64,000 bases of DNA from an uncultured Bacilli bacterium (GCA_947624505.1 CANQKO010000002.1:10097-74096), one strand, 5' to 3'. Counted from the stretch's first letter, positions 17,984 through 44,492 are shown. Notes: generated by a model from the sequence alone, not told the origin. Made by a program: numbers and translations.

Positions 17984-18241
17984 CTTAATTACTTCTTTTT
18001 TATTATATCGTATATCTTAAATTTTATAAAGAGTTTTATTTTTTACTTACCAAATCTCTAGAGAATTGGCATAAAACCTTAAAATTTCTTAAAAAATCAA
18101 TTAAAAAACTATTTACAAAAACAAAATAAATTGTTTAAATAAAGCTTGGGAAGATGTATTTAAGCGTTACCGAAAACTTTTTTATTTAAAGTCTTTTTGA
18201 CTTCGGTCAGGGGGTTTTGGATAGGAAGGTGGTGGGTGCCA

Positions 18242-18328
18242 ATGAATAAGAAATGTCGCGAAGATATATTTTTACTCATTGTTTTAATTTTAGTGTTGGC
18301 TCTGCTTATCCTAATAATTAAAAACTAA
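18242..18328 (+). CDS. 28-aa hydrophobic peptide (MNKKCREDIFLLIVLILVLALLILIIKN), type I toxin-like, copy 1
   Basis: A GGAAGGTGGTGGGTG SD sits 4-5 nt upstream of the ATG. A candidate -35 TTTACA (18112-18117) and -10 TTAAAT (18135-18140) lie upstream. The peptide has one TM helix with a charged N-terminus. Confidence 0.35.
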   Translation: MNKKCREDIFLLIVLILVLALLILIIKN

Positions 18329-18411
18329 CCCATTGGGTTAGTGACCTCTTAGGTAACGCTTATATGCGTCTTCCTATTTATAATTTTAGCATATTAATAT
18401 TTTTTATACAA
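18312..18411 (-). ncRNA. candidate cis-antisense small RNA overlapping the 3' end of the small ORF; a second copy lies at about 18708..18807
   Basis: The minus strand carries TTGTAT-17 nt-TAAAAT (plus-strand 18406-18411 and 18383-18388). It is followed by a CTAACCCAATGGGTTAG hairpin plus UUUUUAAUUAUU terminator (plus-strand 18312-18341). Confidence 0.3.
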
Positions 18412-18637
18412 TATTTTTAGGTTATCAATTTTTTAAATGTTCTTACCAAATCTCTAGAAAATTGGCATAAACTCTGGAAATTTCTTAAAAAATCAATTAA
18501 AAAACTATTTACAAAAACAAAATAAATTGTTTAAATAAAGCTTGGGAAGATGTATTTAAGCGTTACCGAAAACTTTTTTATTTAAAGTCTTTTTGACTTC
18601 GGTCAGGGGGTTTTGGATAGGAAGGTGGTGGGTGCCA

Positions 18638-18724
18638 ATGAATAAGAAATGTCGCGAAGATATATTTTTACTCATTGTTTTAATTTTAGTGTTGGCTCTG
18701 CTTATCCTAATAATTAAAAACTAA
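18638..18724 (+). CDS. 28-aa hydrophobic peptide, copy 2 (identical)
   Basis: Same ORF located 396 bp downstream. Confidence 0.35.
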   Translation: MNKKCREDIFLLIVLILVLALLILIIKN

Positions 18725-18809
18725 CCCATTGGGTTAGCAAACTCTTAGGTAACGCTTATATGCGTCTTCCTATTTATAATTTTAGCATATTAATATTTTT
18801 TATACAATA

Positions 18810-20318
18810 TTATTTTTTCTTTTTCCTATCATCTTCGAAAATATCATAAAATTCTTTAGTTTCTTCTTCATCTTTATTAACTATTTCTTTTACTTCATTA
18901 ATATCTTCTTTTATAATACTTTCTTCTATTTTTTCTTTATCTTCTTTTTGTTTCTTCTTTTTCTTTTTATCTTTCTTCTCTTCTTTAACATTATCTTTCT
19001 TTTTTTCTATTTCTTTTTTTAACTCGTCATTTTTCTTTAAGGTTTTCTTTTTACTAATATTAGTACTAATCAAAGATACTATAGCTAAAAATAAACCAAT
19101 TCCAAAAGCAATAATAATATAAAGATAAGTTTCATTTAATTGATTAAGTTCATCAATTCTTTCTTTATCATATAAAGTAAATGTTTTATTAATTGTATCA
19201 TAATTATAAAAATCTTTTTCACCAGTTTCAATGTTTAGGGCATAAACTACATAATTAGAAGAACTAGTACTTGCTTTAAAAACTTGATAACTATGGTCAT
19301 CTATTTCTTCTTGATACTTTGCTAATCCTGGTAATTCTTTATCATAATCTAATATAATTACTTTTAAACTGGTTCCTACAGTTTCAATATATTTATGATA
19401 ATTACCATTATCATAAATAAAGTTTTCTACTGTACCATCATCTTTTTTTAATCCTACTAAAGTATAATTTACTTTATCATTATAACAAGTAGGAATATTT
19501 AAGCCATTAATAACTACTTCACTTTCAGTAAATAATTGCGGACAAATATAATTATCTCTTAGTTTTATAACGGTATAATTTAAATTATCAATTTTAACAT
19601 TAATAGGATTTTGATCAATAACATTAACTAAAATGACATAAGTTTTTTCACTACCGTTTTCCGCTCTTACAACAACATTAATCGTATTTATGCCTTCTGT
19701 CACATCAATCGCACCATCACCACTAATACTAGCCTTGCTATCAGAGGCTGTAGCATTTATTTTAACTGAAGTAGTACCTTCTGGTACATTTACAGAATAA
19801 TTAGTTGTACTAGCACTAAAACTAGGACTTAAACTATAACCTTCAATACTTAAGCTTTTTAAATTATTATCTTTTGAATAACTATCTTCAAGTTGTTGTT
19901 GGGTAATTACTTTAATAGTTTTTTTACCTGCCGATACATCCATTTCATCCATATTATTATCATACACTAAAACACTTCCAATGGATAAATTAGTTGAACC
20001 AGTTTTGAGGGTTTTAAACGTAAAAGTATAACTTTTAGATTTAATGCCATCTTTAGTAGTAGCAGCAGAAACCATATAATTCCCGCCACCTTCTGCCGTA
20101 GATGATGTAAGTTGAAGATAATTCTTATCATAATTAAGTTGCATTTCCCAACTGCCAATTGCACTACTAGATGATAGTTTTACTGTTACCGTAACTTTTT
20201 TACCTACTACTACTTGACTACTAGAGGTAACACTTACATTAGCGGATGCGGCATTAACTACACAAGGAATAAATATAAGACTAATTAATGTTATAACAAA
20301 TAATTTTATTTTCTTCAT
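18810..20318 (-). CDS. type I membrane surface protein with a cadherin-like beta-sandwich domain and a K/E-rich cytoplasmic tail
   Basis: Signal peptide, an LSIEGYSLSPSFSASTTNYSVNVPEGTTSVKINATASD segment typical of the bacterial cadherin-like domain, a C-terminal TM helix and a poly-K/E tail. Confidence 0.65.
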   Translation of the reverse strand: MKKIKLFVITLISLIFIPCVVNAASANVSVTSSSQVVVGKKVTVTVKLSSSSAIGSWEMQLNYDKNYLQLTSSTAEGGGNYMVSAATTKDGIKSKSYTFTFKTLKTGSTNLSIGSVLVYDNNMDEMDVSAGKKTIKVITQQQLEDSYSKDNNLKSLSIEGYSLSPSFSASTTNYSVNVPEGTTSVKINATASDSKASISGDGAIDVTEGINTINVVVRAENGSEKTYVILVNVIDQNPINVKIDNLNYTVIKLRDNYICPQLFTESEVVINGLNIPTCYNDKVNYTLVGLKKDDGTVENFIYDNGNYHKYIETVGTSLKVIILDYDKELPGLAKYQEEIDDHSYQVFKASTSSSNYVVYALNIETGEKDFYNYDTINKTFTLYDKERIDELNQLNETYLYIIIAFGIGLFLAIVSLISTNISKKKTLKKNDELKKEIEKKKDNVKEEKKDKKKKKKQKEDKEKIEESIIKEDINEVKEIVNKDEEETKEFYDIFEDDRKKKK

Positions 20319-20331
20319 AATTACAACCTTT

Positions 20332-22074
20332 CTATTGTTCTATTTCATATGTTCCTAAAATTTCTTTTTGCACTTGTAATAAATCTAGGGCATTTATTTT
20401 ACCATCTTTAGAAGTATCACCAGCTTCATTATATTCACCGCTTAATTTATAAGTTCCTAAAATATATTTTTGGACTTGTAATAAATCTAGAGCGTTTATT
20501 TTACCATCACCTGAGGTATCACCATTAATAACAACTACTAAAGTTTCACTTTTTTCACTATTACTAACTTCTACTTTAAAGCCTGTCCCAATTAAACCAT
20601 CATTGACAATATTATCTTTACTATCTTTAATCGTTGCACTATTTAAACCAGCGATACTTTCAATGGCATTTTTTACAGTACTTACACTAGTTGATGGTTT
20701 AATACCCATTATATAACCACTTTGATATTTATAACCACTACTAATGATAATAGTACTAATATCAATTATCGTTTTTTCATCTTCTTCTGGTGTTTCGACT
20801 GCACCATTATCTTCCGATGTTATATTATCATCCATATTGTTGTAAACCGGAATATAAAAGATGAAATCACTATCTAATATTTCCATATTTTGATAAGATT
20901 TATAAGTTGTTTTTGATTCACTAGAAGGAGCAGCAATATTAGTCATATATTGATGTCCATATAGTTTACTAATACTAGTGGGAACAACATTAAATTTTTG
21001 TAAATAACCACTATACTGACCAACAGCTATATAAGATGAAGCAATCCCTTTTGCACCACCATAAAGAGCATTATATAAACTATTCCATCCTTTAGATACC
21101 GCATAATCAAGGCCACACACTGTCGTTCCTTTACTTGTTGCACAACTATCGGTAACCCCAAAATTATAAAAATTGTAATATCCTTTATATATTCCATTAT
21201 CACCGTCATAGATGCCACTATAAAGATTATATAAAGAATTACTATTACCAAGTTCTTGTAATATTCTTCCTGATATAAATATTGGACTAACATTTGCACT
21301 TAGGGAAGCATCATTAATAATAACTCCTAAATCATTACCAATACCTAAATGATATTTATAAAAGTCAGCATTTTTAATAACATTACTTACTGCTGATGGG
21401 TATTTTTCTTTTAAAGATTCACTATATTTTAAATATTCAAATTGAAATATAGTGTTTTCACTTAGCCAATTTCTGGGATCCATATAATAAGCAACGGCTT
21501 TATTACTTGCTGGATACCAAGTTTTAGAATAAGGATTTTTACAAGTTTTATCAATATTTTCTTCATTAGAACTAGCAATATAACTTTTGCCACATACACT
21601 TTCACTTTGAACAGCATCTTTAAAATCTAAATTAGTTAAAATAGGTTTAAAAATCCAAGTAGGATGTTTCTCTTTTAAACTACATAATCCTGGCCAATAG
21701 GTTTTCGGAAATCCTGATGCTTGTAATTCTTCTTCACAACTATTTGTGGGGGTATCATTATAAGTAATTTTGGAAACATCTACATAAGTGCTACAAACAT
21801 AACCTACATCACTCGCGTCATAATATATTTTATACCACCCATCTGGACATCCCTTTTCATCATTTACTTTATTTTCATCAACTAAATTATATTCTGAATC
21901 TTTTGTTAACGTTTTAATTCGCTCATAATTAGTTCCTGGACCACTTCTTAAACTGACATTTGTATCATTAATCTTTCCTTTAAAAGTATCAGCATAACAA
22001 AAATTCATTTTTAAAATGAATAGAAAAATAAAAACTAACATAAATATTAAATAGTTATTTTTAATATTTTTCAT
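20332..22074 (-). CDS. secreted SH3b-domain protein with a C-terminal type I dockerin and a possible cell-wall hydrolase core
   Basis: Signal peptide, an SH3_3-like block (VSLRSGPGTNYERIKTL), a central domain of unknown family, and two dockerin repeats DTSGDGKINALDLLQVQKYILG / DTSKDGKINALDLLQVQKEILG at the C-terminus. Confidence 0.65.
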   Translation of the reverse strand: MKNIKNNYLIFMLVFIFLFILKMNFCYADTFKGKINDTNVSLRSGPGTNYERIKTLTKDSEYNLVDENKVNDEKGCPDGWYKIYYDASDVGYVCSTYVDVSKITYNDTPTNSCEEELQASGFPKTYWPGLCSLKEKHPTWIFKPILTNLDFKDAVQSESVCGKSYIASSNEENIDKTCKNPYSKTWYPASNKAVAYYMDPRNWLSENTIFQFEYLKYSESLKEKYPSAVSNVIKNADFYKYHLGIGNDLGVIINDASLSANVSPIFISGRILQELGNSNSLYNLYSGIYDGDNGIYKGYYNFYNFGVTDSCATSKGTTVCGLDYAVSKGWNSLYNALYGGAKGIASSYIAVGQYSGYLQKFNVVPTSISKLYGHQYMTNIAAPSSESKTTYKSYQNMEILDSDFIFYIPVYNNMDDNITSEDNGAVETPEEDEKTIIDISTIIISSGYKYQSGYIMGIKPSTSVSTVKNAIESIAGLNSATIKDSKDNIVNDGLIGTGFKVEVSNSEKSETLVVVINGDTSGDGKINALDLLQVQKYILGTYKLSGEYNEAGDTSKDGKINALDLLQVQKEILGTYEIEQ

Positions 22075-24720: not shown

Positions 24721-24775
24721 GTTAACCTTCTGGTTAACTTTTTTTATAATCAAAAAGGAAGGATTAAATCCTTCC
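24721..24775. terminator. two back-to-back rho-independent terminators, one for uppP (+) and one for the 24823 gene (-)
   Basis: GTTAACCttctGGTTAAC followed by TTTTTTT on the plus strand; GGAAGGATTtaAATCCTTCC preceded by AAAAA (minus-strand U-tract). Confidence 0.6.
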
Positions 24776-24822
24776 CAAGAGTTAAGTCTATGAGGTTTTT
24801 ACGAGTTTTCCTTCTCGATAAC

Positions 24823-27003
24823 TCATTTTGCAATGATGAAAGGATCAGAGGAAGTACCTGTTCCAGAGGAAACTGCACCCGTTGACCCAACGTAAAATAC
24901 AGGTCGTACATCGTACTCCGAATAATAAGTATCGATATTAATCTTCCCGTTATCATATCTAATATTAAGACTATTGCAATGCCTTACCATCCAACCGTAC
25001 CTTGTCATGGTCCACTCCCGACGCTTATCGGTTTCATTACCCGAATTACCACCGTATAACCACCCCATACATCCCGTGTAGCAATTTGTTTCGGGGTCTC
25101 CACTAAAAGCATAACTATAATCGCTGACGGACATAAGTCCGACTTTCGCATCTATGGTGTCAGTCCACCTATCCACGAAACCGTCCTTCACATCATAACC
25201 ACCACTCCAGCTAGGAGCCTGACCCGTCTCAATAGAATACAATACCTCGGCACCGGCGTTGTAACAAGCTCTCCCGTTTCCGCAGTCGTACCCCATATCA
25301 CCATAGAGCCAAGTCGTCGAGATAATTTTATCCTGCCAGATTCGGTCCAACCCCAAAAGGAATTCACTTCCATTCACAGCATCGAATAAGGAACTCTCAG
25401 CCCACTTCACACATGTGGAATCTTCGTTCTCCCATGGATAACCCTTATTATTTAGTCGACCATTCATGATCAACTTCATCTCTCCCTCCTCTGTCATGCC
25501 TATTATTCTATAAATATATTTATTGTTCCTTATTCCGGACCTACACTCCGATACATCATCATAACCAAAACAGATGAAATTATCCACGATGTCATTGCAC
25601 CCATCGCTTTCCGCATTACAAGAACCGTAGAACCGATACATCCCTCCCAAAAGTTCATCACTAATTCCGTTCGGTATTACTTTTAAAACTTCTAAAGCTT
25701 TTCGTTGTCCTTCAGACATCTTTTTTTCTGTAATTACCTTTACATTTGGATAAGGCGATTGACTATATCTTCCTGATGCATCTCTCACTCTTGCTTCTAT
25801 GGTATACTCTGTTCCATCACTTAAATTACTTATTGTACAACTTCCATCTGGAGCATTTGTCCACTCTTCTGTTCCCGGTACTCTACATTGTCTTTCTATT
25901 ATACTACTACTTGGTGTTGTATCTGTTCCACTTACTATTACTGTGATACTACTTGTATCTTGGGTATTTTTACTTATTGTTGCTGTTGGATTTGTTTTAT
26001 CTAACGTTATACTCTTTGTTGATGTTGTATTTATTTCTGATTCATTCCCTGCTTTATCTTTTACTTTTATTTTTACACTATGACTTCCTTCTGTATCGTT
26101 TAATGAATATTCTTTATTTGTTAATGATGTTGATGTTAAATTATCATAACTACAATTATCTTCATATACACAATATTGGTCTATATTTGTTTCTGTTATA
26201 CTTGTACTATATTTTATATTTTTTGTATGAGTATATAATGATGAATCACTTAATTGTTGGTCTTCATCTGCTGTTCCTGTTAAGGTAAATGTTTTTACTA
26301 CAGGTTTTGTTTGATCTACTGTTATTGTTGCTGTGGATTTATCTGTTGTTACTGATATATTATTTGCTTTATCTTTTAAATATATATACATTGTTTTTTC
26401 GCCATCATTTTTATCTTTTAATGTATATGTACCACTTGTTTCACTTAATGTTTGCCAATTACAATTTTCTATACTATTTGTTTCATTTATACAATATTGT
26501 TTTACATCACTTTCATTATCTGTATATGTTACTGTAAATGGTATATTATCTGTTTGATAAGTAAAATTATTACTTAAAGTTGTTCCTCCACTTGTTTTCC
26601 CTGTGACATTAAAAGTATTTATTGTTGGTGTTTCATTTTTATCAAAATATAAATCACAATATATTGTATTTTTACTATTTATGGTTATACTTCCATTTAT
26701 TACTCCATCAGTTAATTCTTGAGTTACAGGTATTGGTGTTATTTCTTGATCATTATAACCTTTACATACTGTTTTAGTTGTATTTAGTAAATAACCACTA
26801 GTTGGAAATGCTATATCAGTTGATGGATCATATATATCACCTCCAACTGTTTTTTGTAAATATATACTAAATTCTTTTCTTTCTATTTTACTTACTTTAT
26901 TCTTTTCTACCACACTAGTATCTTTTTTAAATACTGTTATTATACTTATTATTGTTAATATTACTATTGTTATAATAATTATTATTCTTTTATTCTTTTT
27001 CAT
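24823..27003 (-). CDS. N-terminally anchored surface protein with Ig/Fn3-like domains and a ~300-aa Cys/Trp/Gly-rich C-terminal module
   Basis: Start likely at MKKNKR (27003). TM anchor and beta-rich repeats. A ~90-aa block is almost identical to one in the 27848..29479 protein. The C-terminal coding third has markedly higher G+C than its surroundings. Confidence 0.7.
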   Translation of the reverse strand: MKKNKRIIIIITIVILTIISIITVFKKDTSVVEKNKVSKIERKEFSIYLQKTVGGDIYDPSTDIAFPTSGYLLNTTKTVCKGYNDQEITPIPVTQELTDGVINGSITINSKNTIYCDLYFDKNETPTINTFNVTGKTSGGTTLSNNFTYQTDNIPFTVTYTDNESDVKQYCINETNSIENCNWQTLSETSGTYTLKDKNDGEKTMYIYLKDKANNISVTTDKSTATITVDQTKPVVKTFTLTGTADEDQQLSDSSLYTHTKNIKYSTSITETNIDQYCVYEDNCSYDNLTSTSLTNKEYSLNDTEGSHSVKIKVKDKAGNESEINTTSTKSITLDKTNPTATISKNTQDTSSITVIVSGTDTTPSSSIIERQCRVPGTEEWTNAPDGSCTISNLSDGTEYTIEARVRDASGRYSQSPYPNVKVITEKKMSEGQRKALEVLKVIPNGISDELLGGMYRFYGSCNAESDGCNDIVDNFICFGYDDVSECRSGIRNNKYIYRIIGMTEEGEMKLIMNGRLNNKGYPWENEDSTCVKWAESSLFDAVNGSEFLLGLDRIWQDKIISTTWLYGDMGYDCGNGRACYNAGAEVLYSIETGQAPSWSGGYDVKDGFVDRWTDTIDAKVGLMSVSDYSYAFSGDPETNCYTGCMGWLYGGNSGNETDKRREWTMTRYGWMVRHCNSLNIRYDNGKINIDTYYSEYDVRPVFYVGSTGAVSSGTGTSSDPFIIAK

Positions 27004-27127
27004 AGACAACCATCCTATCATATTAGTGCTTATAGCACAATAACAATATAACATATTTAAATTAAAAAATCTAGTGCTATAAGCCCATAAAATTATTTTT
27101 TGATATATTAGAAAATATTAATAGGAG

Positions 27128-27376
27128 TTGGTGTTAATGGCACTAAAATATAGTGATGATTACTATTATAATATTGTAAGAAAAAATATACGAAAATACC
27201 GAAAAGAAAAAGGATACACTTTACAAAAGCTTGCTGAAGAAGCAGAAATGTCAATGGATTATTTAGCAGAGATAGAAAGTGAAAAAAGAAAGAAAAGTTT
27301 TAGTCTTGCAATTCTTGGCAGAATAGCTGAAGTGCTTGATGTAGATATAGTTAAATTTTTTGATAAAAACAATTAA
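27128..27376 (+). CDS. XRE-family HTH transcriptional regulator
   Basis: 82 aa; YTLQKLAEEAEMSMDYLAEIE is an HTH_XRE helix-turn-helix; divergent from the surface protein gene. Confidence 0.75.
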   Translation: MVLMALKYSDDYYYNIVRKNIRKYRKEKGYTLQKLAEEAEMSMDYLAEIESEKRKKSFSLAILGRIAEVLDVDIVKFFDKNN

Positions 27377-27605
27377 AATAATGATTTCTGTATTGAAGTA
27401 ATTTTAGTAAAAAAGTATCTTTAATTCTTTCGTTAACTTTTTAGACGAATTCCACGGAATATCTATTTTCTGTATATGTAAAATACTTAATTAGATATTC
27501 TTTTTTTATTTGACAATATATTTTACGTATTAGATCATTTATTATAAATGCTTATTTTTTAATAAGATTAATCTATATTGCAAAATTTTTTTAATTTTTA
27601 AAACT

Positions 27606-27645
27606 CAAAAAGAGTGAGAAAATCCCACTCTTTACTACACATTAG
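27606..27645. terminator. hairpin terminator in the intergenic region
   Basis: AAAGAGTGagaaaatccCACTCTTT preceded by an A-run and followed by weak Ts. It reads as a U-tract terminator on the minus strand. Confidence 0.4.
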
Positions 27646-27847
27646 AATTTAACACTTTGTATCTCATTTTTATGAATTTTACTTTGATATTTTTTAGATC
27701 TTGACCTTAACATTTTCACTAAGTCTATGAGATTTTTACAAGTTTTTCTTCTTGAATCTATTTAATTTATAACTTAAAACCTTTTAGTCATAAAAATAAT
27801 AAACTAACGGAAAGTTCTTTTACTAAACTTCTCAAAAAAATTAGCCA

Positions 27848-29479
27848 TCAACTTACGCGAGCGGGCATATAGCATTTATCAGAACCATATAGCGACCCAA
27901 TGCCGTTAGGGCATCTATAACGCGTACACATCTCGCTACATTCCAAATGAGCACCTTCCGAAGAATTCCAAGTGCCGCTTCCTGGATCTTCATAACAGCC
28001 TTGAAAGCACTCGGGCGGATTAGCATTTGCTTTAGCAGTCTCACATTGTTCTTTGGTTGAATAATACTTCACATTCCAGCTACACACTGTCTTACATCCC
28101 GCACAACCATATTGCTCTTCTACCGCATCCCAAACACATATATATCCTCCCGAACTCTGACCATAACTCGGATTATAGGTTAACGTTCCTCCTATTCCGT
28201 CGCAAGTGTAAGTAATATCTTTATCAGTCAATACACTAACACTCGGATAAGGCTCTTGACTCCATCTTCCTGAGACATCTCTTACTCTTGCTTCTATGGT
28301 ATATTCTGTGCCATCATTCAAATTATTTATTGTACAGCTTCCATCTGGAGCATTTGTCCACTCTTCTGTTTCTTTTACTCTACATTGTCTTTCTATTATA
28401 CTACTACTTGGTGTTGTATCTGTTCCACTTACTGTTACTGTGATACTACTTGTATCTTTTGTATTTTCTTTTACTTCTGCTGTTGGATTACTTGTATCTA
28501 GTGTTATTGTCTTTGTTTTTGTTATTGATACATTTCCTTTCTTATCTTTTAAGAAGGCATTTATTGTTTTTAATCCTTCATTATTATTGCTTAATGTTAA
28601 TGTATTTGTAATGGTTTTACTATCTCCAACTGATTTCCATTCTCCATCATTACAACTATCATTTTCTGTTATACAATAACTTTCTACATCTTCATCTGTA
28701 AATGTTAATTTATATGATACCTCATTTTTATGAGTATATAATTTATTATCTGTTAATTCTGTATTATCTGTAACTCCTGTTACAGTAAATTCTTCTATTG
28801 TTGGTGGGGTTGTATCTTTTAATACACATTTTAAATCACTTACTTCAACACTTATATTTAACTCTTTATTTACTAAATAATCTTGAGCTTTATTTGGATC
28901 ATTATTTAATAATACTTGTAATTTTATTTCATTTTTATTAATCTTACTTACATCAAAATTTGTTACATAGACTTTTTTATTGGCTTCTAATTCATTTTTT
29001 ATATTACTTAAATCATATTCTTCTTCTAAACTATTACCTGTTAATTTTAACTTTAAATCATTTTTATTAATTACTTCACTTAAACTATTTTCTTTTTCAC
29101 TAATAAGAGAAACAGTTATATTAGCACTACATTCATACGTATTAATGGCATCTTGTAAGACACTTACACTAGCAATTATATTAGTTCCTGCTTCTTCTGT
29201 TATTTCATAATTCTTTGTTTCATCACTTGTGGCATAATATGTTCTTACTTCACTATTTTTATTTAAATCAGAGGGTTGTAATCTTATATGCAAGTTATCT
29301 ATTAATTGTGATAAAACTATATTACTTAGTTTTGGTGTTCTACCCGCTATATTTGTTATAGCATTACTATCTGAACTAGCACTAAAATAGGCATATGTTG
29401 CTCCCACTGTTAACATTATTAAGAATGCCACTGCTATTACACTACTTACTATTAATTTCTTTTTATTATTTTCTTTCAT
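27848..29479 (-). CDS. secreted protein with a SipW-cognate-type signal peptide, Ig/Fn3-like domains and a ~120-aa Cys-rich C-terminal module
   Basis: Start at MKENNKKK (GAGGT RBS). The signal ends ...LTVGATYAYFSASSD (TasA/CalY-type motif). It shares the Fn3-like block with the 24823 gene, and its C-terminal coding region is GC-rich. Confidence 0.7.
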   Translation of the reverse strand: MKENNKKKLIVSSVIAVAFLIMLTVGATYAYFSASSDSNAITNIAGRTPKLSNIVLSQLIDNLHIRLQPSDLNKNSEVRTYYATSDETKNYEITEEAGTNIIASVSVLQDAINTYECSANITVSLISEKENSLSEVINKNDLKLKLTGNSLEEEYDLSNIKNELEANKKVYVTNFDVSKINKNEIKLQVLLNNDPNKAQDYLVNKELNISVEVSDLKCVLKDTTPPTIEEFTVTGVTDNTELTDNKLYTHKNEVSYKLTFTDEDVESYCITENDSCNDGEWKSVGDSKTITNTLTLSNNNEGLKTINAFLKDKKGNVSITKTKTITLDTSNPTAEVKENTKDTSSITVTVSGTDTTPSSSIIERQCRVKETEEWTNAPDGSCTINNLNDGTEYTIEARVRDVSGRWSQEPYPSVSVLTDKDITYTCDGIGGTLTYNPSYGQSSGGYICVWDAVEEQYGCAGCKTVCSWNVKYYSTKEQCETAKANANPPECFQGCYEDPGSGTWNSSEGAHLECSEMCTRYRCPNGIGSLYGSDKCYMPARVS

Positions 29480-29530
29480 ATTTAACCTCATTCACACCCG
29501 TACGATGATAATATGTCAATGGTGAAATAA

Positions 29531-29941
29531 ATGAAAATAAATGCTAAAGAATATCCCACTAATGACATATTTAAATTTTTAAGAGAGGCTTTAAATTTAA
29601 CCCAAAAAGAACTAGCTAGTGCCTCTGGTATCAGCATAAGTTCAATTGAAAAATATGAAACTAACAGACAAAATTATACTTATGCTACTTTATTAAAAAT
29701 AATTAAAATATTTAATTTAAAAATAAATATGAAAATTAATATTAATAATTTTAAATGTAATGAATTAATTAGATACTTAAGAAAAGATTTAAATTTAACC
29801 CAAGAACAATTTTCTAAAAAACTTAATATCAGTTTAAGTTCTTTAGAAAAATATGAAAGTGCTAGACAAGATTACCCTTTTATAATATTAGTTAAAATAG
29901 CTAAAACATTTAATTATGATTTAATAATTCAAGATAAATAA
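29531..29941 (+). CDS. XRE-family regulator with two tandem HTH domains
   Basis: LNLTQKELASASGISISSIEKYE and LNLTQEQFSKKLNISLSSLEKYE repeats; divergent from the 27848 gene. Confidence 0.7.
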   Translation: MKINAKEYPTNDIFKFLREALNLTQKELASASGISISSIEKYETNRQNYTYATLLKIIKIFNLKINMKININNFKCNELIRYLRKDLNLTQEQFSKKLNISLSSLEKYESARQDYPFIILVKIAKTFNYDLIIQDK

Positions 29942-29961
29942 AAATAAGAAGATCTCTCTTC

Positions 29962-31188
29962 TTATTCATATATTCCTAAATAATATTTTTTCTTACCCTT
30001 TTTTATTAAATAAACTTTTTTATCTATGGCATTATCTTTACTAACTAAATAATTACAATCATTTATTTTTATATTATTTAAACTTATGGCATTACCATTT
30101 ATTAACTCTCTTGCTTCTCTTTTACTTGTACAAATATTACCTAAAATAAGTAAATCTTCTAATATTATATTATCTTTTAAAATAATTTTTTCCATATCTT
30201 TAAAATTATTTAAAATATCATCACTAGATAATTCCATTATTTCTTCAGAGAATAATGCTTCACTCATTTTAAGAGCTTTTTGATATTCTTCTTTTCCGTG
30301 TAAGAAGGTAATTATTTCTTCCGCTAATTTCTTTTGGGCCATTCTTAATTCTGGTGCTGCTTGATGTTCTACCTCTATTTTCTCTATTTCTTCTTTAGTT
30401 AAAAATGTTAATTTCTTTAAATAATCAATAACTATATCATCAGAAGTATTAATTAAATATTGATATAATTCATAACTAGATGTTTTATTTTTATCAAGCC
30501 ATAAAGCATTCCCTTCAGTTTTACCAAATTTAACACCATTTGCGTCCAGTACTAAAGGCATTGTTAAACCATATAATTCAGTATCAAGCATTTTTCTTGC
30601 TAGTTCAATACCCGTTGTAATATTACCCCATTGATCAGAACCCGCAACTTGTAGAGTAACACCTTTTTCTTTATATAAATGTACAAAATCTAAACCTTGT
30701 AAAAGCGTATAAGCAAACTCACAGAAAGTAATTCCTGTTTCAAGTCTTCTTTGAATAATATCTTTATCTAGCATATAATTAACATTAATATATTTACCAT
30801 AATCTCTTAAGAAATCAATAATACTAATATCTTTAATCCAATCATAGTTATTCACAACTTCAAAACCAAATATTTCCCTAGCTTGTTTAGTAAGACCTAA
30901 AACATTTTTTTGAACATCTTCTTTAGTAATCATTTGTCTTTCGACAGATGGTTTAGGGTCCCCAATTAACCCAGTGGCACCCCCAATTAATAAAATAGGT
31001 TTATGACCAAACCTAGCAAGTCTAGATGCAATTAAAAATGATGAAAAATGACCTATATGCATTGAATCGGCCGTTGGATCAGTGCCAATATAAAAAGTTA
31101 ATTTTTCTTCATTTAATTTTTTTTCAAGTTCAGGAGTAGAAACATCTTTAATAAGTCCTCGCCATTTTAAATCTTCATAACAATTCAT
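29962..31188 (-). CDS. tyrS: tyrosine--tRNA ligase
   Basis: HIGH motif (MHIGHFSSF), KMSKS-type KFGKTEG, and a C-terminal S4 domain. Confidence 0.9.
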   Translation of the reverse strand: MNCYEDLKWRGLIKDVSTPELEKKLNEEKLTFYIGTDPTADSMHIGHFSSFLIASRLARFGHKPILLIGGATGLIGDPKPSVERQMITKEDVQKNVLGLTKQAREIFGFEVVNNYDWIKDISIIDFLRDYGKYINVNYMLDKDIIQRRLETGITFCEFAYTLLQGLDFVHLYKEKGVTLQVAGSDQWGNITTGIELARKMLDTELYGLTMPLVLDANGVKFGKTEGNALWLDKNKTSSYELYQYLINTSDDIVIDYLKKLTFLTKEEIEKIEVEHQAAPELRMAQKKLAEEIITFLHGKEEYQKALKMSEALFSEEIMELSSDDILNNFKDMEKIILKDNIILEDLLILGNICTSKREARELINGNAISLNNIKINDCNYLVSKDNAIDKKVYLIKKGKKKYYLGIYE

Positions 31189-31368
31189 AATATTCCTCTT
31201 TCTAATAAAAAAATCATAAACTAAGATTCTAAGGACGAGTTTCCCCGCGGTACCACCTTAATTTATGAATTTATCATACACTTTATTCTTGTAACGTAAG
31301 AATAACGTTTTAACTCCGGAGTTGTAAATTCCATCAACATTAACAATTTGATTATACAATTATTTTTT
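31189..31368 (-). promoter_or_regulatory. T-box riboswitch leader of tyrS
   Basis: The minus strand reads AAUUAAGGUGGUACCGCGGGGAAACUCG (T-box consensus AGGGUGGNACCGCG) about 70 nt upstream of the ATG. A TATAAT -10 lies near 31355, and a stem-I-like helix carries a UAC (Tyr)-containing loop. Confidence 0.7.
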
Positions 31369-32313
31369 TCATTTAGCAATATTTAACTTTTCATAAACTT
31401 TTTTAAATACTTTTTCATATTTATATTCTAACATTTTATAATATAGTTCTCTTTGATAATAACTAAATACTTCTAAACCTTCATAAGTATCAGGAATAGA
31501 TAAAAATAACTCTTTTATTTTTAACATATCAATTTTAGGGAATATTCGAAGTAATGCTTTATTACAATTAATATTTTTAGTACTTTCAATATATTTTAAC
31601 GGATTTATTAACTTATCATTTTCCGTAAATGCACAAACACTACTATCATAAGTCATTTGGATAAATTTATCATTATTATTTAAAATATCTCTAAGCTTTT
31701 CATCACCAGCTTTATTATAAAATGATGCTCCATTATCATATACAGGAGATAATCTTAAATTACCAGATTCTTTATCTAAAATGAGTCCCCAATTAGCTTC
31801 ATTTCGATCATTATTACTTAAAAAAGCATCAATAATAAACATATCCCAAAATCTTTCCTTTAATTTTGGAACAAATTCAAAATAAATATTGTTATTCATT
31901 ATATATATAACATCATCTAAATCATCAAAACGATTAAATTTTGAAGATGAACTTCTATTTTCTAAATACTCTTCAATATCTTTATCATAACTATTTTTAA
32001 TAGCATTAAAATCAATTATTTCTTCGGTATTTTTTAAAAAGTCTTTACAAGCTACGACTATTTTCCCATTTAAATACCCAAGTAATGTTTTATGAGTATC
32101 TATTCCAATTAATTCATATATATGGGAACCTAAATATTCTGATAATGGAGATGTAGTATAAGAAATACTATCAACATTCATACTTTTAGTACTTTTAGGA
32201 AATTTAACTAAATAAGTTTCACCATCTATTATAAGACCTATTTTACTTCCACTATGACCACCATAAGCTTTTTTAGCTATTTCCTCTTTATTAAAATCTC
32301 TTATTTCTAACAT
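31369..32313 (-). CDS. HipA-like (CtkA/HipA C-terminal domain) putative Ser/Thr kinase
   Basis: DAFLSNNDRNEANWGL and LSPVYDNGAS blocks resemble the HipA_C catalytic and activation motifs (D.h.gN.DRH..N). Confidence 0.45.
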   Translation of the reverse strand: MLEIRDFNKEEIAKKAYGGHSGSKIGLIIDGETYLVKFPKSTKSMNVDSISYTTSPLSEYLGSHIYELIGIDTHKTLLGYLNGKIVVACKDFLKNTEEIIDFNAIKNSYDKDIEEYLENRSSSSKFNRFDDLDDVIYIMNNNIYFEFVPKLKERFWDMFIIDAFLSNNDRNEANWGLILDKESGNLRLSPVYDNGASFYNKAGDEKLRDILNNNDKFIQMTYDSSVCAFTENDKLINPLKYIESTKNINCNKALLRIFPKIDMLKIKELFLSIPDTYEGLEVFSYYQRELYYKMLEYKYEKVFKKVYEKLNIAK

Positions 32314-32331
32314 TTCTTCACCAATTACTAC

Positions 32332-33051
32332 TTAATCCATATTTACATTATGGTATATTTCAGTTACATCATCAATGGCATCTAACATATTATATAGTTT
32401 CTTAAATGTTTCTAAATCTTCACCTTCTAAAGTAATTTTTTCTTTAGCAAACATTCCTATTTGATCTATTGTATAATCAACATTAGGAATAATTTTTTCA
32501 ATAACATCTTTAACTTTATCGTGATCATTTGGTTTCATTGTAATAGTTATTTCCCCATTTTCTTCTTCAAAATCAATAATTTCAATCCCCGCATTTAATA
32601 ATTCTTCAAATAACATTTCACTATTATCATACTTAAATGCTAAAACACCAAGATAATCATAATTATAAGAAACGGAATTAGTAACACCTAAACTTTTATT
32701 AACTTTATTAAAAGCTGCTCTTACTTCTCCCACCGTTCTATTAACATTATCAGTAAGAGTTTTAATTATTAAAGTTGATGCCCCAGGTCCAAATCCTTCA
32801 TAAACAACTTCAGAATAGTCTTCTCCCCCAACACCTTTGGCTTTCTCAATTGCTCTATTGATAATATCACTTGGCACTTGTTCTTTTCTTGCTTTATCAA
32901 TAATTCTTTTTAAACTAATATTAGCATCTGGATCAGGTAGTCCTTTTTTAGCAGCTAAATAAATTTCTTTAGCATAAGTGGTATATATTTTACCTCTTGC
33001 TGCTCCTGTCTTTTGAATACTATACTTTCTAACTTCATATGCTCTTCCCAT
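32332..33051 (-). CDS. yebC: YebC/PmpR-family DNA-binding regulator
   Basis: MGRAYEVRK...AKKGLPDPDANISLK N-terminus diagnostic for the YebC family; 239 aa. Confidence 0.9.
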   Translation of the reverse strand: MGRAYEVRKYSIQKTGAARGKIYTTYAKEIYLAAKKGLPDPDANISLKRIIDKARKEQVPSDIINRAIEKAKGVGGEDYSEVVYEGFGPGASTLIIKTLTDNVNRTVGEVRAAFNKVNKSLGVTNSVSYNYDYLGVLAFKYDNSEMLFEELLNAGIEIIDFEEENGEITITMKPNDHDKVKDVIEKIIPNVDYTIDQIGMFAKEKITLEGEDLETFKKLYNMLDAIDDVTEIYHNVNMD

Positions 33052-33064
33052 AAATAATTTCCTC

Positions 33065-34105
33065 CTATAAAATTCTTAAACTTCTTATAAAGTCATAAAT
33101 AAAATATTTTTTTTGACTCTTTTTTAAACTCTTTATAACACTTAATACTTTATATATATTAAAATATGAATAATCTTCTTTTAACATAGCATATTCTAAA
33201 GCTTTTAAAATTGCTTCTTTATTATTTTTAGCATTAAAATATTTTTTGACCTTTTTTTGTAAATCAGTATTAACGTGCCTCATTAAAGTATTATACAACA
33301 ACATCCTACTATTTTTAAAGATAAAATTATAACCATCATAATTTTTTAAGATTTTTAAAGTATCATAATATCCTAATTTTATATTTTCATTAATCTTACT
33401 TTTATTAACATTTAAAGTACTTCCTAAAAATCTTGATGGTACAATCTCTACTACTTTACTTTTATCTTTTACTCTTCTTGAAAAACCAATTCCTTGAATT
33501 TCAACAGAATATACTTTATCATATCCTTGATTTAAAAACATATTAATGGGATTATTGTCATAAAATCCTCCGTCAATATAATATTTATCATCAATTAATT
33601 TTTGCACTTTAAATACTGGTAAATTACAACTAGCTAAAATGTATTCGGGTATTTTACCCTTTTGCATATCTTTTTTAAATAAATATAATGGTTTTAAATC
33701 ATTAACTCTAACTGTTACTAAGCCAAAATCCATTTTACTTTTTCTAATCTTTTCTTCATCGATCATTTCACTTAAAATATCTTTTAAATGTGTATTATCA
33801 ATGCCTTTATTTTTAACAACTAAAGTTAATTCTTCAATACCATAAATAAGTTCTTTAAATTTATCTTTTTTATTAACACTTTCAACATATTTAGAATTAA
33901 AATTTAAAAGTTTACCTACATCAACACTTTTCCAAAACTCATATAATTCTTTTTCCATCCCACTACAAATTAAAGCAGCATTAAAAGAGCCAATAGATGT
34001 TCCAGCAACTCCATCAATCTTAATTCCACATTCTTTAAAAGCTAAGTAAGCTCCGACTTGGTAAGAGCCTTTAACTCCACCACCCGCTAGTACTAATCCT
34101 GTCAT
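33065..34105 (-). CDS. patatin-like phospholipase
   Basis: GGGVKGSYQVG oxyanion motif and a GTSIGS nucleophile elbow. Confidence 0.8.
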   Translation of the reverse strand: MTGLVLAGGGVKGSYQVGAYLAFKECGIKIDGVAGTSIGSFNAALICSGMEKELYEFWKSVDVGKLLNFNSKYVESVNKKDKFKELIYGIEELTLVVKNKGIDNTHLKDILSEMIDEEKIRKSKMDFGLVTVRVNDLKPLYLFKKDMQKGKIPEYILASCNLPVFKVQKLIDDKYYIDGGFYDNNPINMFLNQGYDKVYSVEIQGIGFSRRVKDKSKVVEIVPSRFLGSTLNVNKSKINENIKLGYYDTLKILKNYDGYNFIFKNSRMLLYNTLMRHVNTDLQKKVKKYFNAKNNKEAILKALEYAMLKEDYSYFNIYKVLSVIKSLKKSQKKYFIYDFIRSLRIL

Positions 34106-34109
34106 TTAA

Positions 34110-35036
34110 TTACCCCTTTTTAATATATAATATTATTTTTCCTAATAATTTACCAATTGGTCTATTTTTCCCCCGACTATATAATCTTTTATAATATTTT
34201 TCGATACTATCAGTTCGATAATTAATGAGATTATTTAAATCATCACTATCTATTAAAACGGGACTTATATAATCTTTATCTAGAATCAATCTTGCTAAAA
34301 CATATTTTAAACTTAAACCATAATTCTTTAAAATATTATCTAAGATATCTTGATATTTATATCTTCCTTCCGGACCCATTCCTATATTAAATATTTTTTT
34401 ATTAAGTATTGATGTATAATTTAAAGCCTTAACAAAGGCATAAGCAGCATCAAAAGTTGTTGTTACTTCTACTACTAAATCTTTTTTAACATTATAAATA
34501 AATGGTTCTTTTTTTAAATCACTTAAAACTAATGGTACTCTAAATATCGTATAATTTTTTAATTTCTTTTTTATTAATTCTTCTGTTATATATTTATTAT
34601 AACTAAAGTTAGTTAGTGAATCTTCTTTAATAGTCTCTTTAACCGAAGCCATTAATGATTTATCATACAAAGATGTTGTTGAAGCATAAAATAAATGACA
34701 ATTTTTATTATAATAGTTAATAGCTTTGATAATATTTTCGCACCCCTTATAATCTACTACTTCACCAATGTTTTTTGAAAAATCTCCTAAAGGAGGAAGA
34801 ACACTTGCTAAATGAATAATATAATCATTTTGTTTGACTACATCTTCCATTAAAGAATAATCATTTACATCACCATAAATAATTTTAATTCGCTTTTGAT
34901 ATTTTTTAAGTCTTTTATAAACACTTTTATTTCTTAAATCTAAAGCTGTTATTTCATATTTTCCTTCACTTAGTAAATATTTAATAACATTTATACCAAT
35001 AGCGCCAGAGGCTCCCGTAACTAATACCTTTTTCAT
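34110..35036 (-). CDS. NAD-dependent epimerase/dehydratase family protein
   Basis: VLVTGASGAIG Rossmann N-terminus; 308 aa. Confidence 0.7.
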   Translation of the reverse strand: MKKVLVTGASGAIGINVIKYLLSEGKYEITALDLRNKSVYKRLKKYQKRIKIIYGDVNDYSLMEDVVKQNDYIIHLASVLPPLGDFSKNIGEVVDYKGCENIIKAINYYNKNCHLFYASTTSLYDKSLMASVKETIKEDSLTNFSYNKYITEELIKKKLKNYTIFRVPLVLSDLKKEPFIYNVKKDLVVEVTTTFDAAYAFVKALNYTSILNKKIFNIGMGPEGRYKYQDILDNILKNYGLSLKYVLARLILDKDYISPVLIDSDDLNNLINYRTDSIEKYYKRLYSRGKNRPIGKLLGKIILYIKKG

Positions 35037-35837: not shown

Positions 35838-38800
35838 TTACTTACCAATTCGTTCACATTCGCCAACTTCAATTGTTAAGTTACCTTTAATAGATTTATC
35901 AATATTATTAGATTGGTCAAATTTCGAATAATTTCTAAATATTAATTCAATATCCCAAACTTGAGAAGTAAGATTATCATCATCAGCATCATTACTTATT
36001 TGAATATCTTCAATTACATATTCAGCATTTTCAATAATATCGATATCATATGTTTCTTTTACTTCATTAGAACTTTTAGCTTTATAGCCCTTTAATCTTA
36101 ATATCATTTGATTTTTTAATTCTTTAAGTTCTTCTGTATCAGAAATATATTGGTTGGTAAAGTTATTGGTTTCAGTCTTATATCTTAAGCTATATGTACA
36201 AGTAGTAATTTCAGCATTAGATTTTAATGAAACTTTAGCTTGTTTAGGGCCACTTGTGATTTCAATAAATTCTTTATCACCAACATTTTCTTTTGACATA
36301 TCGTCGCCCGTAATTTTTAAGTTAATATTATTTGCATTTTCAATAGTAAGTAATCCTTCTATTTCATCCTCGGTACAATTCTTATCACACTCACCATCGC
36401 CATTACTATCACATTTAGAATCGCACTTACCATCGTTTGGTTTACCGCCATTACCACCAGTATCACAGTTTAAATCACAAATACCATTGTTATCAGGGTC
36501 ACAATTTCGGTCACACTCACCGTCATTTGGCTTTTTACGATCAGATCCATCATCACAGTTTTTATCGCACTTGTTATCATCAGGAGTTCCACCAAATGAT
36601 CCATCATCGCAATTACTATCACAAACTCCATCACCGTCATCATCACAGTTTTTATCACATTTGCCATCACCGGCAGTTCCACCAAATGAACCATCATCAC
36701 AATTAGAATCACATTTACCATCATTAGGCTTACCATTATTTTTTCCATCGTCGCAATTAGAATCACATTTGCCGTCATTAGGAGTGCCACCGTTTTTGCC
36801 ATCGTCACAGTTTAAATCACATTTACCGTCACCAGGAGTGCCACCATTTGAACCGTCATCACAGTTACGATCACATTTGCCATCATTAGCTTCTTTTCCA
36901 TCAGATCCATCATCGCAGTTTTTATCACACTTATTATCACCAGCTTTGCCGCCGAATGAACCATCATCACAGTTTTTATCACATTTGCCATCACCGGCAG
37001 TGCCTCCATTGGATCCATCATCACAGTTTTTATCGCATTTGCCATCACCGGCAGTGCCTCCATTGGATCCATCATCACAGTTTTTATCACAAGTGTTATC
37101 ACCAGGAGTACCACCGAATGAGCCATCATCACAATTGCTATCGCAAATGCCATCATTTATTTTACCACCGTTTTTGCCATCATCACAGTTTTTATCGCAC
37201 TTGCCATCATTTGGCTTGCCACCGAATGAACCATCATCGCAGTTTTTATCACACTCGCCATCACCAGGAGTACCTTTATTAGAACCATCATCACAGTTTT
37301 TATCACATTTGCCATCACCTGTAGCACCACCAAATGATCCATCATCACAATTCTTATCGCATTTGCCATCACCAGGAGTGCCTTTATTAGATCCATCATC
37401 GCAGTTTTTATCACAAGTTTTATCACCAGCAGTACCATTATTAGAACCATCGTCACAATTCTTATCGCATTTGCCATCACCTGGAGCGCCACCAAATGAT
37501 CCATCATCACAGTTACGATCACATATATCATCACTAGCTTTGCCACCAAATGATCCATCATCACAATTGGAATCACAAATATCGTCATTTGGTTTGCCAC
37601 CGTTTTTACCATCATCACAGTTCTTATCGCATTTACCATCATTTGGTTTACCATTATTGGCACCATCATCACAGTTTAAATCGCAAATGCCATCATTAGA
37701 TTTACCATTATTGGTACCATTATCACAATTACGATCGCACTTATTATCATTTGGAGTTCTGCCAAATGATCCATCATCACAGTTACGATCACATTTACCA
37801 TCACCAGGAATACCACCATTAGATCCATCATCGCAATTTCTATCGCATTTGCCATCGCCTTTAACTCCACCATTAGATCCATCATCACAATTGCTATCAC
37901 ATTTACCATCATTAGGAGTGCCACCATTTTCGCCATTATCACAGTTTAGATGACATTTACCATCAGTTGTACAGTTACGATCACATACACCATTATTATC
38001 TGGATCACAATTTTTATCGCATTCACCATCACCATCGGTGTCACAATTCCTATCACATTCACCATCACCAGGAGTGCCACCAAATGAGCCATCATCACAA
38101 TTTAAATCGCATTTACCATCGCCATCAGTATCACAATTTTTACTACATTTGTCATTATCACCAACATAGCAATTTAAATCGCAATCACCATCACCATCAG
38201 TATCACAATTTTTATCACATTTACCATCGCCATCAGTATCACAATTTAAATCGCATTCACCATCTCCGTCGGTGTCACAATTTTTATAACATTTATCATC
38301 GTCACCAATATGGCAATTTAAATCACAATTGCCATCACCATCAGTATCACAATTTTTATCGCACTTATCATCGTTATCGGTATCACAATTTTTATCACAC
38401 TTACCGTCACCGGCATCGCCACCAAATGATCCATCATCACAATTTACATCACATTTGCCATCACCATTGGTGTCACAATTTTTATAACATTTATCATCGT
38501 CACCAACATAGCAATTTTTATCACACTCGTCATCACCAGCTTCGCCACCAAATGATCCATCATCACAATTCTTATCGCAAATACCATCACCAGCAGTACC
38601 GCTATCGGAGCCATCATCACAGTTTTTATCACATTTGCCATCGTTAGGTTTACCGCCATTAGATCCATCATCACAATTAATATCACAAATATTATCATCA
38701 GGAGTACCACCGAATGAACCTTTATCACAGTTACGATCACACTTACCATCGCCAATAGTTCCACCATTAGATCCATCATCACAGTTAGAGTCACACGTGT

Positions 38801-43673: not shown

Positions 43674-43744
43674 GATGCATATATTATATATTTATGCTCC
43701 ATCTAATTTTAGGTGTGTTTATATAACTATTTAAAAAGAGATAA

Positions 43745-44100
43745 TTACATTTCTTTTTGAATGTTGATTATCTCTTCTTCTTTTAAATTTAATATTTCAC
43801 TTATTTCTTTTGTACTCATTCCTTTTGATAACAGTTTTTTTGCTGTGTTGATTTTTGTTTCGTAAATACCTTTTTCTAAACCTTCTTGAATTCCTTTTTC
43901 CAAACCTTCTTGAATTCCTTTTTCTAATCCTTTATTTTCACTATCTTCCATTCTCTTTCGGTATATGTATTCGAAATCTCTTTCTTGCTCAAGTTGCATT
44001 TGTTTGATCACATCTTCATTCATCTCTAATACTTTCTCCCCTACTTTCTTAAGTATCTCGTTTGTTTTTCCTAACGCAATGATTTCTTCTTTATTCGCCC
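43745..44100 (-). pseudogene. 3' fragment (C-terminal ~95 codons plus a downstream segment) duplicated from the Rpn-family gene at 44493..45455
   Basis: Nucleotide identity with 44493..44880 includes the EKGIQEGL repeat region and the tail; identity breaks at ~44100. Confidence 0.6.
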
Positions 44101-44492
44101 CTAATTGTTAATTTTATCGATAATATAATCAGTGATTTAAAAATTATAATAATAGCATTTTAAGATTATTTTCAATAAATTTTAATTTTTTTTGAACTAG
44201 GAATCCAATAGTATGAATTAAATGGCATAAGCCAGTTAGCATTTAAGCCAACTGGCAAATCTAAGGCCTAACATACCATTGCCTATTTCCAAAAGCTTGC
44301 TCAAAATTTAGGTAAAAATAAATATTACAGAATTTTTAAAATTATTTTATCACCTTAACTAATTTAATTTTTTCAAAATCACAAGAAATTGATGAAAATA
44401 TATTAAAAATTAACAACTAATATAAAAATGTATGTTTTCCTACAAAATTATATTAACTAAAACCTACATTTTTATGTTGACATTATCAATAA

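Follow-up and report, generated by a model that had tools for sequence, protein, structure and literature searches.

We analysed a 64,000-nucleotide (nt) chromosomal stretch from an uncultured Bacilli bacterium (CANQKO010000002.1:10097-74096; hereafter the window), which has a GC content of 25.6% and carries two paralogous genes, A and B, for putative surface proteins. Each gene encodes a trunk that ends in a conserved fn3-like block and is followed by a C-terminal module, here called the tip, and each is transcribed divergently from a gene of the XRE family of helix-turn-helix (HTH) regulators (Table 1). This arrangement had been described in a sequence-only reading of the window, and the observation was confirmed at the same place, with small corrections.

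The block shared by the two genes lies within a 300-nt direct repeat (25718-26017 and 28215-28514) that is 85% identical, with a core of ~235 nt that is ~95% identical and flanks that are 45–60% identical. At the protein level, ~80 of 90 residues are the same in A and B, in agreement with the near-identical stretch of ~90 residues reported earlier. The block itself therefore stands, whereas its Fn3-like label depends on Pfam matches below the gathering cut-off only, to Big_13 in A (22.4 bits; cut-off 27) and to Y_Y_Y in B (24.9 bits; cut-off 26.6); no fn3-type Pfam model scored above its gathering threshold for the block. The likely start codon of gene A lies at 27003, where the start MKKNKR agrees with the homologues P0046 and P0048 and with the allele on contig L010, and that of gene B lies at 29479, the product being identical to a 543-aa database protein (P0041). 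With these starts, the divergent intergenic regions measure 133 and 51 bp rather than the 73 and 39 bp first given.

Table 1 Features of the A and B loci, with positions counted from the first nucleotide of the window.
Feature	Position	Strand	Description
Terminator of gene A	24751..24776	-	Intrinsic terminator
3' element of gene A	24775..24817	-	Hairpin CGAG-AAGGAAAA-CTCG, tail TAAAAACC, then TCATAGACTTAACTCTTGG; 3' boundary of the exchangeable tip
Gene A	24823..27003	-	Open reading frame (ORF), 726 aa; N-terminal hydrophobic anchor, N-domain, Ig-like repeats, fn3-like block, tip A
Tip A	24826..25719	-	298 aa; predicted DUF6273-like, C-type-lectin fold; GC 0.43, GC3s 0.39
fn3-like block of gene A	25720..25953	-	aa 351-428; 5' boundary of the exchangeable tip
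A/B gene-conversion tract	25830..25990	-	Inside the block; roughly 170 nt
Candidate operator boxes (two)	27025-27039 and 27073-27086		AGTGCT(T)ATA(A)GC; A/XRE-A intergenic region (27025..27086)
XRE-A	27137..27376	+	Single HTH_3, 79 aa (82 aa from TTG at 27128); divergent from gene A
Terminator of gene B	27609..27633	-	Intrinsic terminator
3' element downstream of gene B	27720..27754	-	Degenerate copy; CAAG-AAGAAAAA-CTTG, TAAAAATC, TCATAGACTTA
Gene B	27848..29479	-	543 aa; SipW-like N-terminal signal, unrelated N-domain, one Ig-like repeat, fn3-like block, tip B
Tip B	27851..28219	-	123 aa, 12 Cys; minimal member of the disulfide-rich tip class; GC 0.45, GC3s 0.32
fn3-like block of gene B	28220..28459	-	aa 341-420
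Candidate promoter/operator of gene B	29496..29519	-	TTGACA, then box ATCATCGTACGGGT; candidate XRE2 box CGTACGGGT
XRE2	29531..29941	+	Tandem double HTH_3, 136 aa; divergent from gene B; internal duplication

The two tips have the lengths expected from the earlier description (~300 and ~120 residues). No sequence similarity was seen between them and their predicted folds differ, indicating that they are not detectably related, as had been proposed. Tip A contains 10 cysteines and tip B contains 12, not the ~16 originally counted. Structure prediction and a fold search, the latter suggested with the sequence-only reading, gave tip A a C-type-lectin-like fold, which is also the fold of solved and predicted DUF6273 domains, but yielded no recognisable fold for tip B. 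The fold matches of tip A include the N-domain of the Thomasclavelia IgA protease and phage receptor-binding proteins, in both of which DUF6273 has been described (PMC12402451 and PMC10743442, respectively); among viral models, the best matches were DUF6273 and gut-phage receptor-binding proteins (Foldseek E=6e-7 to 1e-4). The IgA protease of Thomasclavelia ramosa (PDB 9qa6; PMC12402451, PMC12237041) has its DUF6273 domain at the N-terminus, fused to an M64 peptidase, and carries a sortase anchor, whereas A and B have no peptidase, are anchored N-terminally and bear exchangeable tips. At the sequence level, tip A has ~40 detectable homologues, none of which has a name, and the best is only 44% identical and lies on a contig of 27% GC. 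The Pfam DUF6273 model (PF19789) did not match protein A at E<=0.1 and has a precomputed match on just one remote homologue of tip A (P0030), so that tip A is referred to here as DUF6273-like. Within a disulfide-rich class that is conserved at the start (AYxCxxG...GYIC) and at the end (YYCxSGW..SGSxSSLxCYKAAxKG), tip B is the shortest member. Homologues of the block plus tip B were absent from a word-indexed database of 5.8 billion proteins, but an exhaustive search of representatives did find them. Sequence searches of the PDB with both tips and with the N-domain of B gave no match.

According to an exhaustive search of proteins and a scan of genomes in GTDB, the family is restricted to AT-rich uncultured Bacilli and 'Tenericutes' metagenome-assembled genomes (MAGs) from rabbit, goat and human gut, with 5–7 family loci per MAG. 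From the N-terminus onwards, a typical member has a hydrophobic anchor, a small N-domain, between zero and three Ig-like repeats and the fn3-like block, and ends in one of the two tip classes; gene A and most other members have a plain anchor in place of the SipW-like signal of B. Similar trunks can carry opposite tip classes, as in P0057 and P0070 (82% identical over 334 aa of trunk) and in P0062 and P0073 (69% over ~405 aa). In P0001, from locus L001, a B-type N-terminus is joined directly to an A-type tip and the gene adjoins a tandem-HTH gene. The syntenic relative L041 has a single family gene, with A-type trunk and tip, between XRE2 and uppP.

The DNA that encodes the tips differs sharply in base composition from its surroundings. 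In 300-nt windows the tips reach a GC content of 0.43–0.50, compared with a mean of 0.256, and they form the two highest GC peaks that are not explained by amino-acid composition. In tips A and B, the GC content of synonymous third codon positions (GC3s) is 0.39 and 0.32, respectively, compared with 0.05 and 0.08 in the trunks, 0.12–0.13 in the block and 0.06–0.15 in 30 other genes. Both sliding-window GC and GC3s thus bear out the earlier observation that the tips are far richer in GC than the AT-rich window, and place the step at synonymous sites. The shift extends across the family. Third-position GC (GC3) in the tip exceeds that of its own trunk in 42 of 44 loci (0.23 vs 0.13) and that of neighbouring genes in 41 of 46 (0.23 vs 0.14), is highest in the last 100 codons and is equally raised in the Cys-rich tip of L010 (0.37), while all 49 genomic loci lie in stretches of 23–32% GC. 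GC-rich codon usage is therefore a persistent, maintained and intrinsic property of tip DNA across the family and not a mark of recent import. From trunk to tip, third-position A falls from 0.55 to 0.19–0.24 and T stays at 0.37–0.41. When ordinary genes are taken as the baseline, however, both A and T at third positions are lowered in the tips and it is the trunk that is unusually rich in A; the apparent depletion of adenine alone arises because the trunks are so rich in A-ending codons. In the trunks (25954-27003 and 28460-29479) such codons make up 0.52–0.58 of third positions, compared with 0.37 in housekeeping genes (ATA 52 vs ATT 8; ACA 77 vs ACT 14, for example), and this excess holds family-wide.

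Our preferred guess for the cause of the high GC of the tips is GC-biased repair linked to frequent recombination, or else selection of the kind invoked for the vls cassettes of Borrelia. The slight rise of GC3s in the block, where conversion is demonstrable (see below), lends some weak support to biased gene conversion. The vls cassette region has 49% GC in a genome of 28.6% GC (PMC11499132), and A and B resemble it in that GC-rich DNA of a variable surface protein (45–50% in vls; 0.43–0.45 in the tips) lies in an AT-rich background (~28% and 0.256, respectively); segmental gene conversion is a further trait in common. Unlike vls, the A and B loci have no silent cassette copies in the window and no excess of G-runs, and their alleles differ by whole modules rather than by segments. 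A separate GC-rich ORF lies at 35838-39083 (minus strand); behind an N-terminal anchor, its 1081-aa product consists almost wholly of Asp/Cys/Gly/Asn repeats of the CDxNCDDGSxGG type. Its DNA reaches 0.44 GC with a GC3s of only 0.19, indicating that the GC richness stems mostly from amino-acid composition; metagenome contigs break there.

Comparison with other assemblies of the same species revealed alternative tips at one locus. Contig L010 is 99.3% identical to the window through uppP up to 24829, is then unrelated, and matches again (89% identity) from 25727; the gene A product of this contig has 615 aa and a Cys-rich tip. Contig L007 likewise leaves the window sequence at 24829 and enters a third tip, which ends ...SGTGTASDPFVVSSDACSDGRYPFPC. 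At least three different tips are thus present at locus A in the population, and the loss of homology, which is sharp at both borders, is confined to 24829-25727. Three further contigs (L005, L006 and L008) end inside the conserved element that follows the stop codon, and L007 and L010 diverge just beyond it. The departure points of L010 and L007 indicate that the exchanged segment spans the region from the end of the block to this element. Together with the similar trunks that carry either tip class, these alleles substantiate the idea of cassette-like modules on a conserved trunk, and the analogy with polymorphic adhesins fits this anatomy.

A direct trace of conversion between the two paralogues is seen in the mosaic structure of the block. 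From 25990 to 25830, gene A of the window is 0.85–0.98 identical to gene B of the window but only 0.48–0.57 identical to its own allele on L010, and upstream of this tract the relation is reversed. At locus B, four contigs from independent assemblies (L003, L011, L012 and L016) carry both tip B and its junction with the trunk at 98.7–100% identity. Two other alleles of 27848-28220 (L013:1060-1480 and L014:660-1075) have a tip of ~75% identity with two in-frame TAA codons at shared positions in an otherwise open frame, representing either a decaying tip or a switched-off variant. No integrase or recombinase, of the kind that adjoins the cassettes of site-specific systems such as integrons and shufflons, was found in the window (1-64000), except for a PD-(D/E)XK transposase-like ORF at 44493-45455. 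The 3' end of that ORF overlaps one copy of a ~380-nt repeat (43741-44105 and 44489-44877; 92% identical), which may be the remnant of a second copy.

The element downstream of the stop codon, which contains a hairpin (24794-24817 for gene A and 27731-27754 for gene B), recurs between stop codon and intrinsic terminator in ~20 paralogous loci as CGAGAAGGAAAACTCG-TWAAAACC-(T)TCATAGACTTAAyyCTTGG. Its core is a covarying motif of a variable 4-bp stem, the loop AAGGAAAA and the tail TWAAAACC (UWAAAACC as RNA). In the stem, 98.8% of cells are paired and three of the four pairs change on both sides. The motif is not confined to the family. Searches with the exact 23-mer (hairpin plus tail) matched 31 metagenome contigs and 13 contigs in IMG/VR, with GC contents of 25–54% and mostly a single copy each. 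These include DNA phages, some of which carry tRNA arrays, and dicistro-like, tombus-like and picorna-like RNA viruses, in which the motif follows the stop codon of the replicase. With loop and tail held fixed, a perfect 4-bp stem was present in 52 of 98 distinct IMG/VR contexts, with at least 10 stem sequences, compared with 2 of 111 and 3 of 111 in controls. Many phages carry AGAAAGGR behind the motif, then ~8 nt and an ATG, ahead of small ORFs, and among loci L068-L228 it often lies just after a stop codon or just before a ribosome-binding site. As for a possible pseudoknot between loop GG and tail CC, the B copy of the window has a G-C to A-U change, but variant patterns in viral contigs have stems at chance level only. 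Neither the window nor 20 motif-carrying loci matched an Rfam family at gathering score (chance-level matches only, at E<=10), a literature search on the motif sequence returned no relevant paper, and no recombinase partner of the hairpin is known. The s2m element is a mobile stem-loop common to unrelated families of RNA viruses. The hairpin, though not the rest of the locus, is comparable to s2m in being short, near-invariant and placed just after stop codons in unrelated replicons, but it differs in sequence and structure and also occurs in DNA phages and a bacterial chromosome.

Both divergent genes encode HTH_3 proteins (Pfam cut-off 23), with 42.9 bits for XRE-A (E=5e-11) and 84.8 bits over two matched stretches for XRE2 (E=4e-24), which upholds the earlier view that each surface-protein gene faces its own XRE gene and that the second of these has a tandem HTH. 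An identical XRE-A protein is encoded on 14 contigs. In several MAG species, at least 10 related loci in all have a divergent XRE gene directly upstream of the family gene, and L041 likewise pairs its XRE2 orthologue with a family member. The two candidate operator boxes follow the pattern AGTGCT(T)ATA(A)GC, which is unique to these sites in the window. Between strains that are 89% identical from the A trunk to the XRE gene, the aligned A/XRE-A intergenic stretch differs by one substitution. The promoter region of gene B is kept in L041, with the TCGTACGGGT box present twice and a TTGACA-17-TATAAT promoter. This conserved synteny, taken with the intergenic boxes, suggests that the XRE proteins control A and B. 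Two further XRE-type HTH proteins, fused to other domains, are encoded at 47251-48225 and 41713-42735 (both minus strand), one of them combining HTH_3 with an ABC ATPase, showing that XRE regulators are abundant in the window.

The remaining genes of the window include a Mur ligase, cell-envelope polysaccharide genes, uppP, tyrS, yebC, uvrB and proS. The host belongs to a lineage of uncultured Bacilli; the same species is present at 99–100% identity in several ENA metagenome assemblies, and 29496-34983 is syntenic with the rabbit-gut MAG Lapin-017__bin6 at 82–84% identity. Just upstream of the locus, two further predicted surface proteins are encoded on the minus strand (20332-22074 and 18810-20318); one comprises an SH3_3 domain and two dockerin repeats, and the second, a Cadherin-like protein, has a Lys/Glu-rich tail and is anchored at its C-terminus. 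Tandem 373-nt copies (18046-18418 and 18442-18814; 97.6% identical), which are also present in contig L005, occupy the gap between a glycosyltransferase gene and the gene of the Cadherin-like protein. A gene for a HipA_C-like kinase (31369-32313, minus strand) lies between yebC and tyrS, and no ORF for it is listed at the syntenic position of L041.

Several other explanations could account for parts of these observations. The sequence-only reading had suggested that the tips were acquired horizontally; they could be recent imports from GC-richer bacterial or phage donors, with a composition still to converge on that of the host. The sharp GC3 step at the block-to-tip junction fits this, as do the common occurrence of DUF6273 domains in gut-phage receptor-binding proteins and the fact that few family tips, if any, are as GC-rich as those of the window, which lie at the top of the range (GC3s 0.39; family mean tip GC3 0.23). 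However, family-wide tip GC excess on AT-rich contigs does not look like recently imported DNA: 49 of 49 homologous loci are AT-rich and nearly all show the excess over the trunk, the closest relative of tip A is itself distant and on an AT-rich contig, and the Cys-rich class is equally GC-rich. No GC-rich or phage donor was found, tip A having no match in IMG/VR or, by tblastn, in GenBank phages. Many independent transfers from unseen donors would be needed; import is an unlikely cause of the high GC. We give barely any credence to an assembly chimera in which foreign GC-rich reads were joined to AT-rich genes. Contigs of the species do break repeatedly around gene A, and tip A was seen in this window only, but gene B with its tip recurs in four independent assemblies, the fusions are in frame, the block-then-tip architecture is found in dozens of database proteins and MAG loci, and a family-specific 3' element follows the tips. 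The tips might alternatively be targets of a diversity-generating retroelement (DGR), whose adenine-directed mutagenesis would explain both their variability and their low A content. DUF6273 is a lectin-fold DGR target in phage receptor-binding proteins, and C-type-lectin folds in general are classic targets (PMC10743442); moreover, the variable part of the protein is C-terminal with a conserved hairpin behind it, A falls at third positions while T is kept, and the 3' end of gene A is a point at which assemblies break. Nevertheless, the window encodes no reverse transcriptase, no DGR-type reverse transcriptase motif was present in 607 kb (the window and the first 67 fetched loci), and no template repeat or other repeat of tip DNA was found. 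Relative to ordinary genes, A and T are both lowered, and alleles differ by a whole module or by ~25% over the full tip rather than at A sites in a short region, while tip B is almost invariant in four assemblies. We consider a DGR highly improbable. The phage 'tentaclins' (PMC10743442) are similar to A in presenting a DUF6273-like lectin-fold domain on a string of Ig-like or fn3-like domains, with the binding domain as the variable part, but A is chromosomal and cell-anchored, has this domain at its C-terminus and varies by whole-module replacement and allelic divergence, with no reverse transcriptase or template repeat found.

The conserved trunk, the variable tips with their shift in composition and the many paralogues also recall polymorphic toxins or contact-dependent competition systems with exchangeable C-terminal toxins; the resemblance to polymorphic toxins had been pointed out at the outset. 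Polymorphic toxins of the Rhs and CdiA types, which undergo C-terminal tip displacement, share the conserved trunk, the swapped C-terminal modules and the difference in composition between tip and trunk, and likewise recombine at a conserved junction. The analogy fails, however, because A and B have no toxin domain (no toxin family matched in Pfam or NCBIfam) and no immunity gene: no small immunity ORF follows the stop codon, which is succeeded by the 3' element, the terminator and then uppP or XRE-A. No orphan array of tips with immunity genes is found in the window, tip A has a lectin fold and the tips resemble binding domains, making a toxin system most improbable. A further possibility is a biofilm-matrix module like that of TasA and SinR, in which an XRE master regulator would control B as a fibre protein processed by SipW. 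As in the Bacillus TasA-SipW-SinR/SlrR operon, a surface or secreted protein with a SipW-like signal adjoins an XRE-family regulator, and the N-terminal sequence ...VGATYAYFSA of B is similar to SipW-dependent signals (TIGR04088, E=0.012). This match, however, reaches 15.7 bits against a cut-off of 19 and is limited to protein B, whereas gene A and most of the family have a plain anchor. Pfam showed no match to TasA or Peptidase_M73, the N-domain of B has no similarity in the PDB, no sipW or other signal peptidase gene is among the genes of the window, and the regulators match generic HTH_3 only, the SlrR model scoring 40.4 bits against a cut-off of 250. The sinR/tasA-like layout originally proposed did not hold up on these grounds, and we regard such a module as very unlikely.

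We favour, as fairly probable, the reading that the two genes are members of a multigene family encoding membrane-anchored surface proteins of a stalk-and-tip design, whose persistently GC-rich tips are exchanged by recombination and which have XRE regulators as partners. The N-terminal hydrophobic segment would hold the protein in the membrane, the Ig-like and fn3-like domains would form a stalk, and the C-terminal module would serve as a distal, ligand-binding tip of one of two unrelated classes, one with a predicted DUF6273-like C-type-lectin fold and one disulfide-rich and without a recognisable fold. Tips would be replaced in frame by homologous recombination, both between paralogues and between strains, within two framing stretches, the end of the fn3-like block on the 5' side and the element between stop codon and terminator on the 3' side. 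The alternative tips, the abrupt borders and the A/B conversion tract are direct observations; that recombination makes use of the block end and the 3' element is suggested by the position of the borders. The outcome would be strain-level diversity of binding specificity, as for adhesins under pressure from hosts, phages or the immune system, and each gene would be controlled by its divergent XRE protein, acting as repressor or activator.

Several points weigh against this reading. The membrane anchor and the outward orientation are predictions from the protein sequence, and the argument for XRE control is one of synteny. No other assembly contained the tip A of the window, and its junctions therefore come from a single one. 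The 3' homology arm is only ~45 nt long, and neither a recombination intermediate nor a donor cassette was seen. G-runs and GC skew of the vls type are absent, as runs of three or more G occur at the frequency expected from shuffling and the skew of 0.27–0.34 does not exceed that of neighbouring genes (0.3–0.6 in 300-nt windows). Finally, since the hairpin is also present in phages and RNA viruses, the 3' element may serve an RNA function apart from exchange; it may be conserved for reasons of its own and merely supply downstream homology. A more speculative version, for which we see only a small chance, holds that the tips are kept GC-rich as substrates of dedicated, frequent recombination among the 5–7 paralogues, in the manner of vls but without silent cassettes, and that the 3' element is a new mobile structured nucleic-acid module that marks the cassette border and acts in recombination, translation termination or RNA stability.

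Gut Bacilli of this kind have small genomes and are uncultured, and almost nothing is known of how they attach to hosts or partners. Under the favoured reading of A and B as stalk proteins with exchangeable lectin-like or disulfide-rich tips, the family could plausibly make up a repertoire of adhesins and mark diversity among strains. The covarying motif of the 3' hairpin, for its part, is undescribed and is shared across bacteria, phages and eukaryotic RNA viruses. Set against a GC3 of ~10% in the ordinary genes of these genomes, the GC3 excess of the tips provides a clean natural case for studying the forces that oppose AT mutational pressure, whether biased gene conversion or selection, analogous to that of Borrelia vls in a different architecture.

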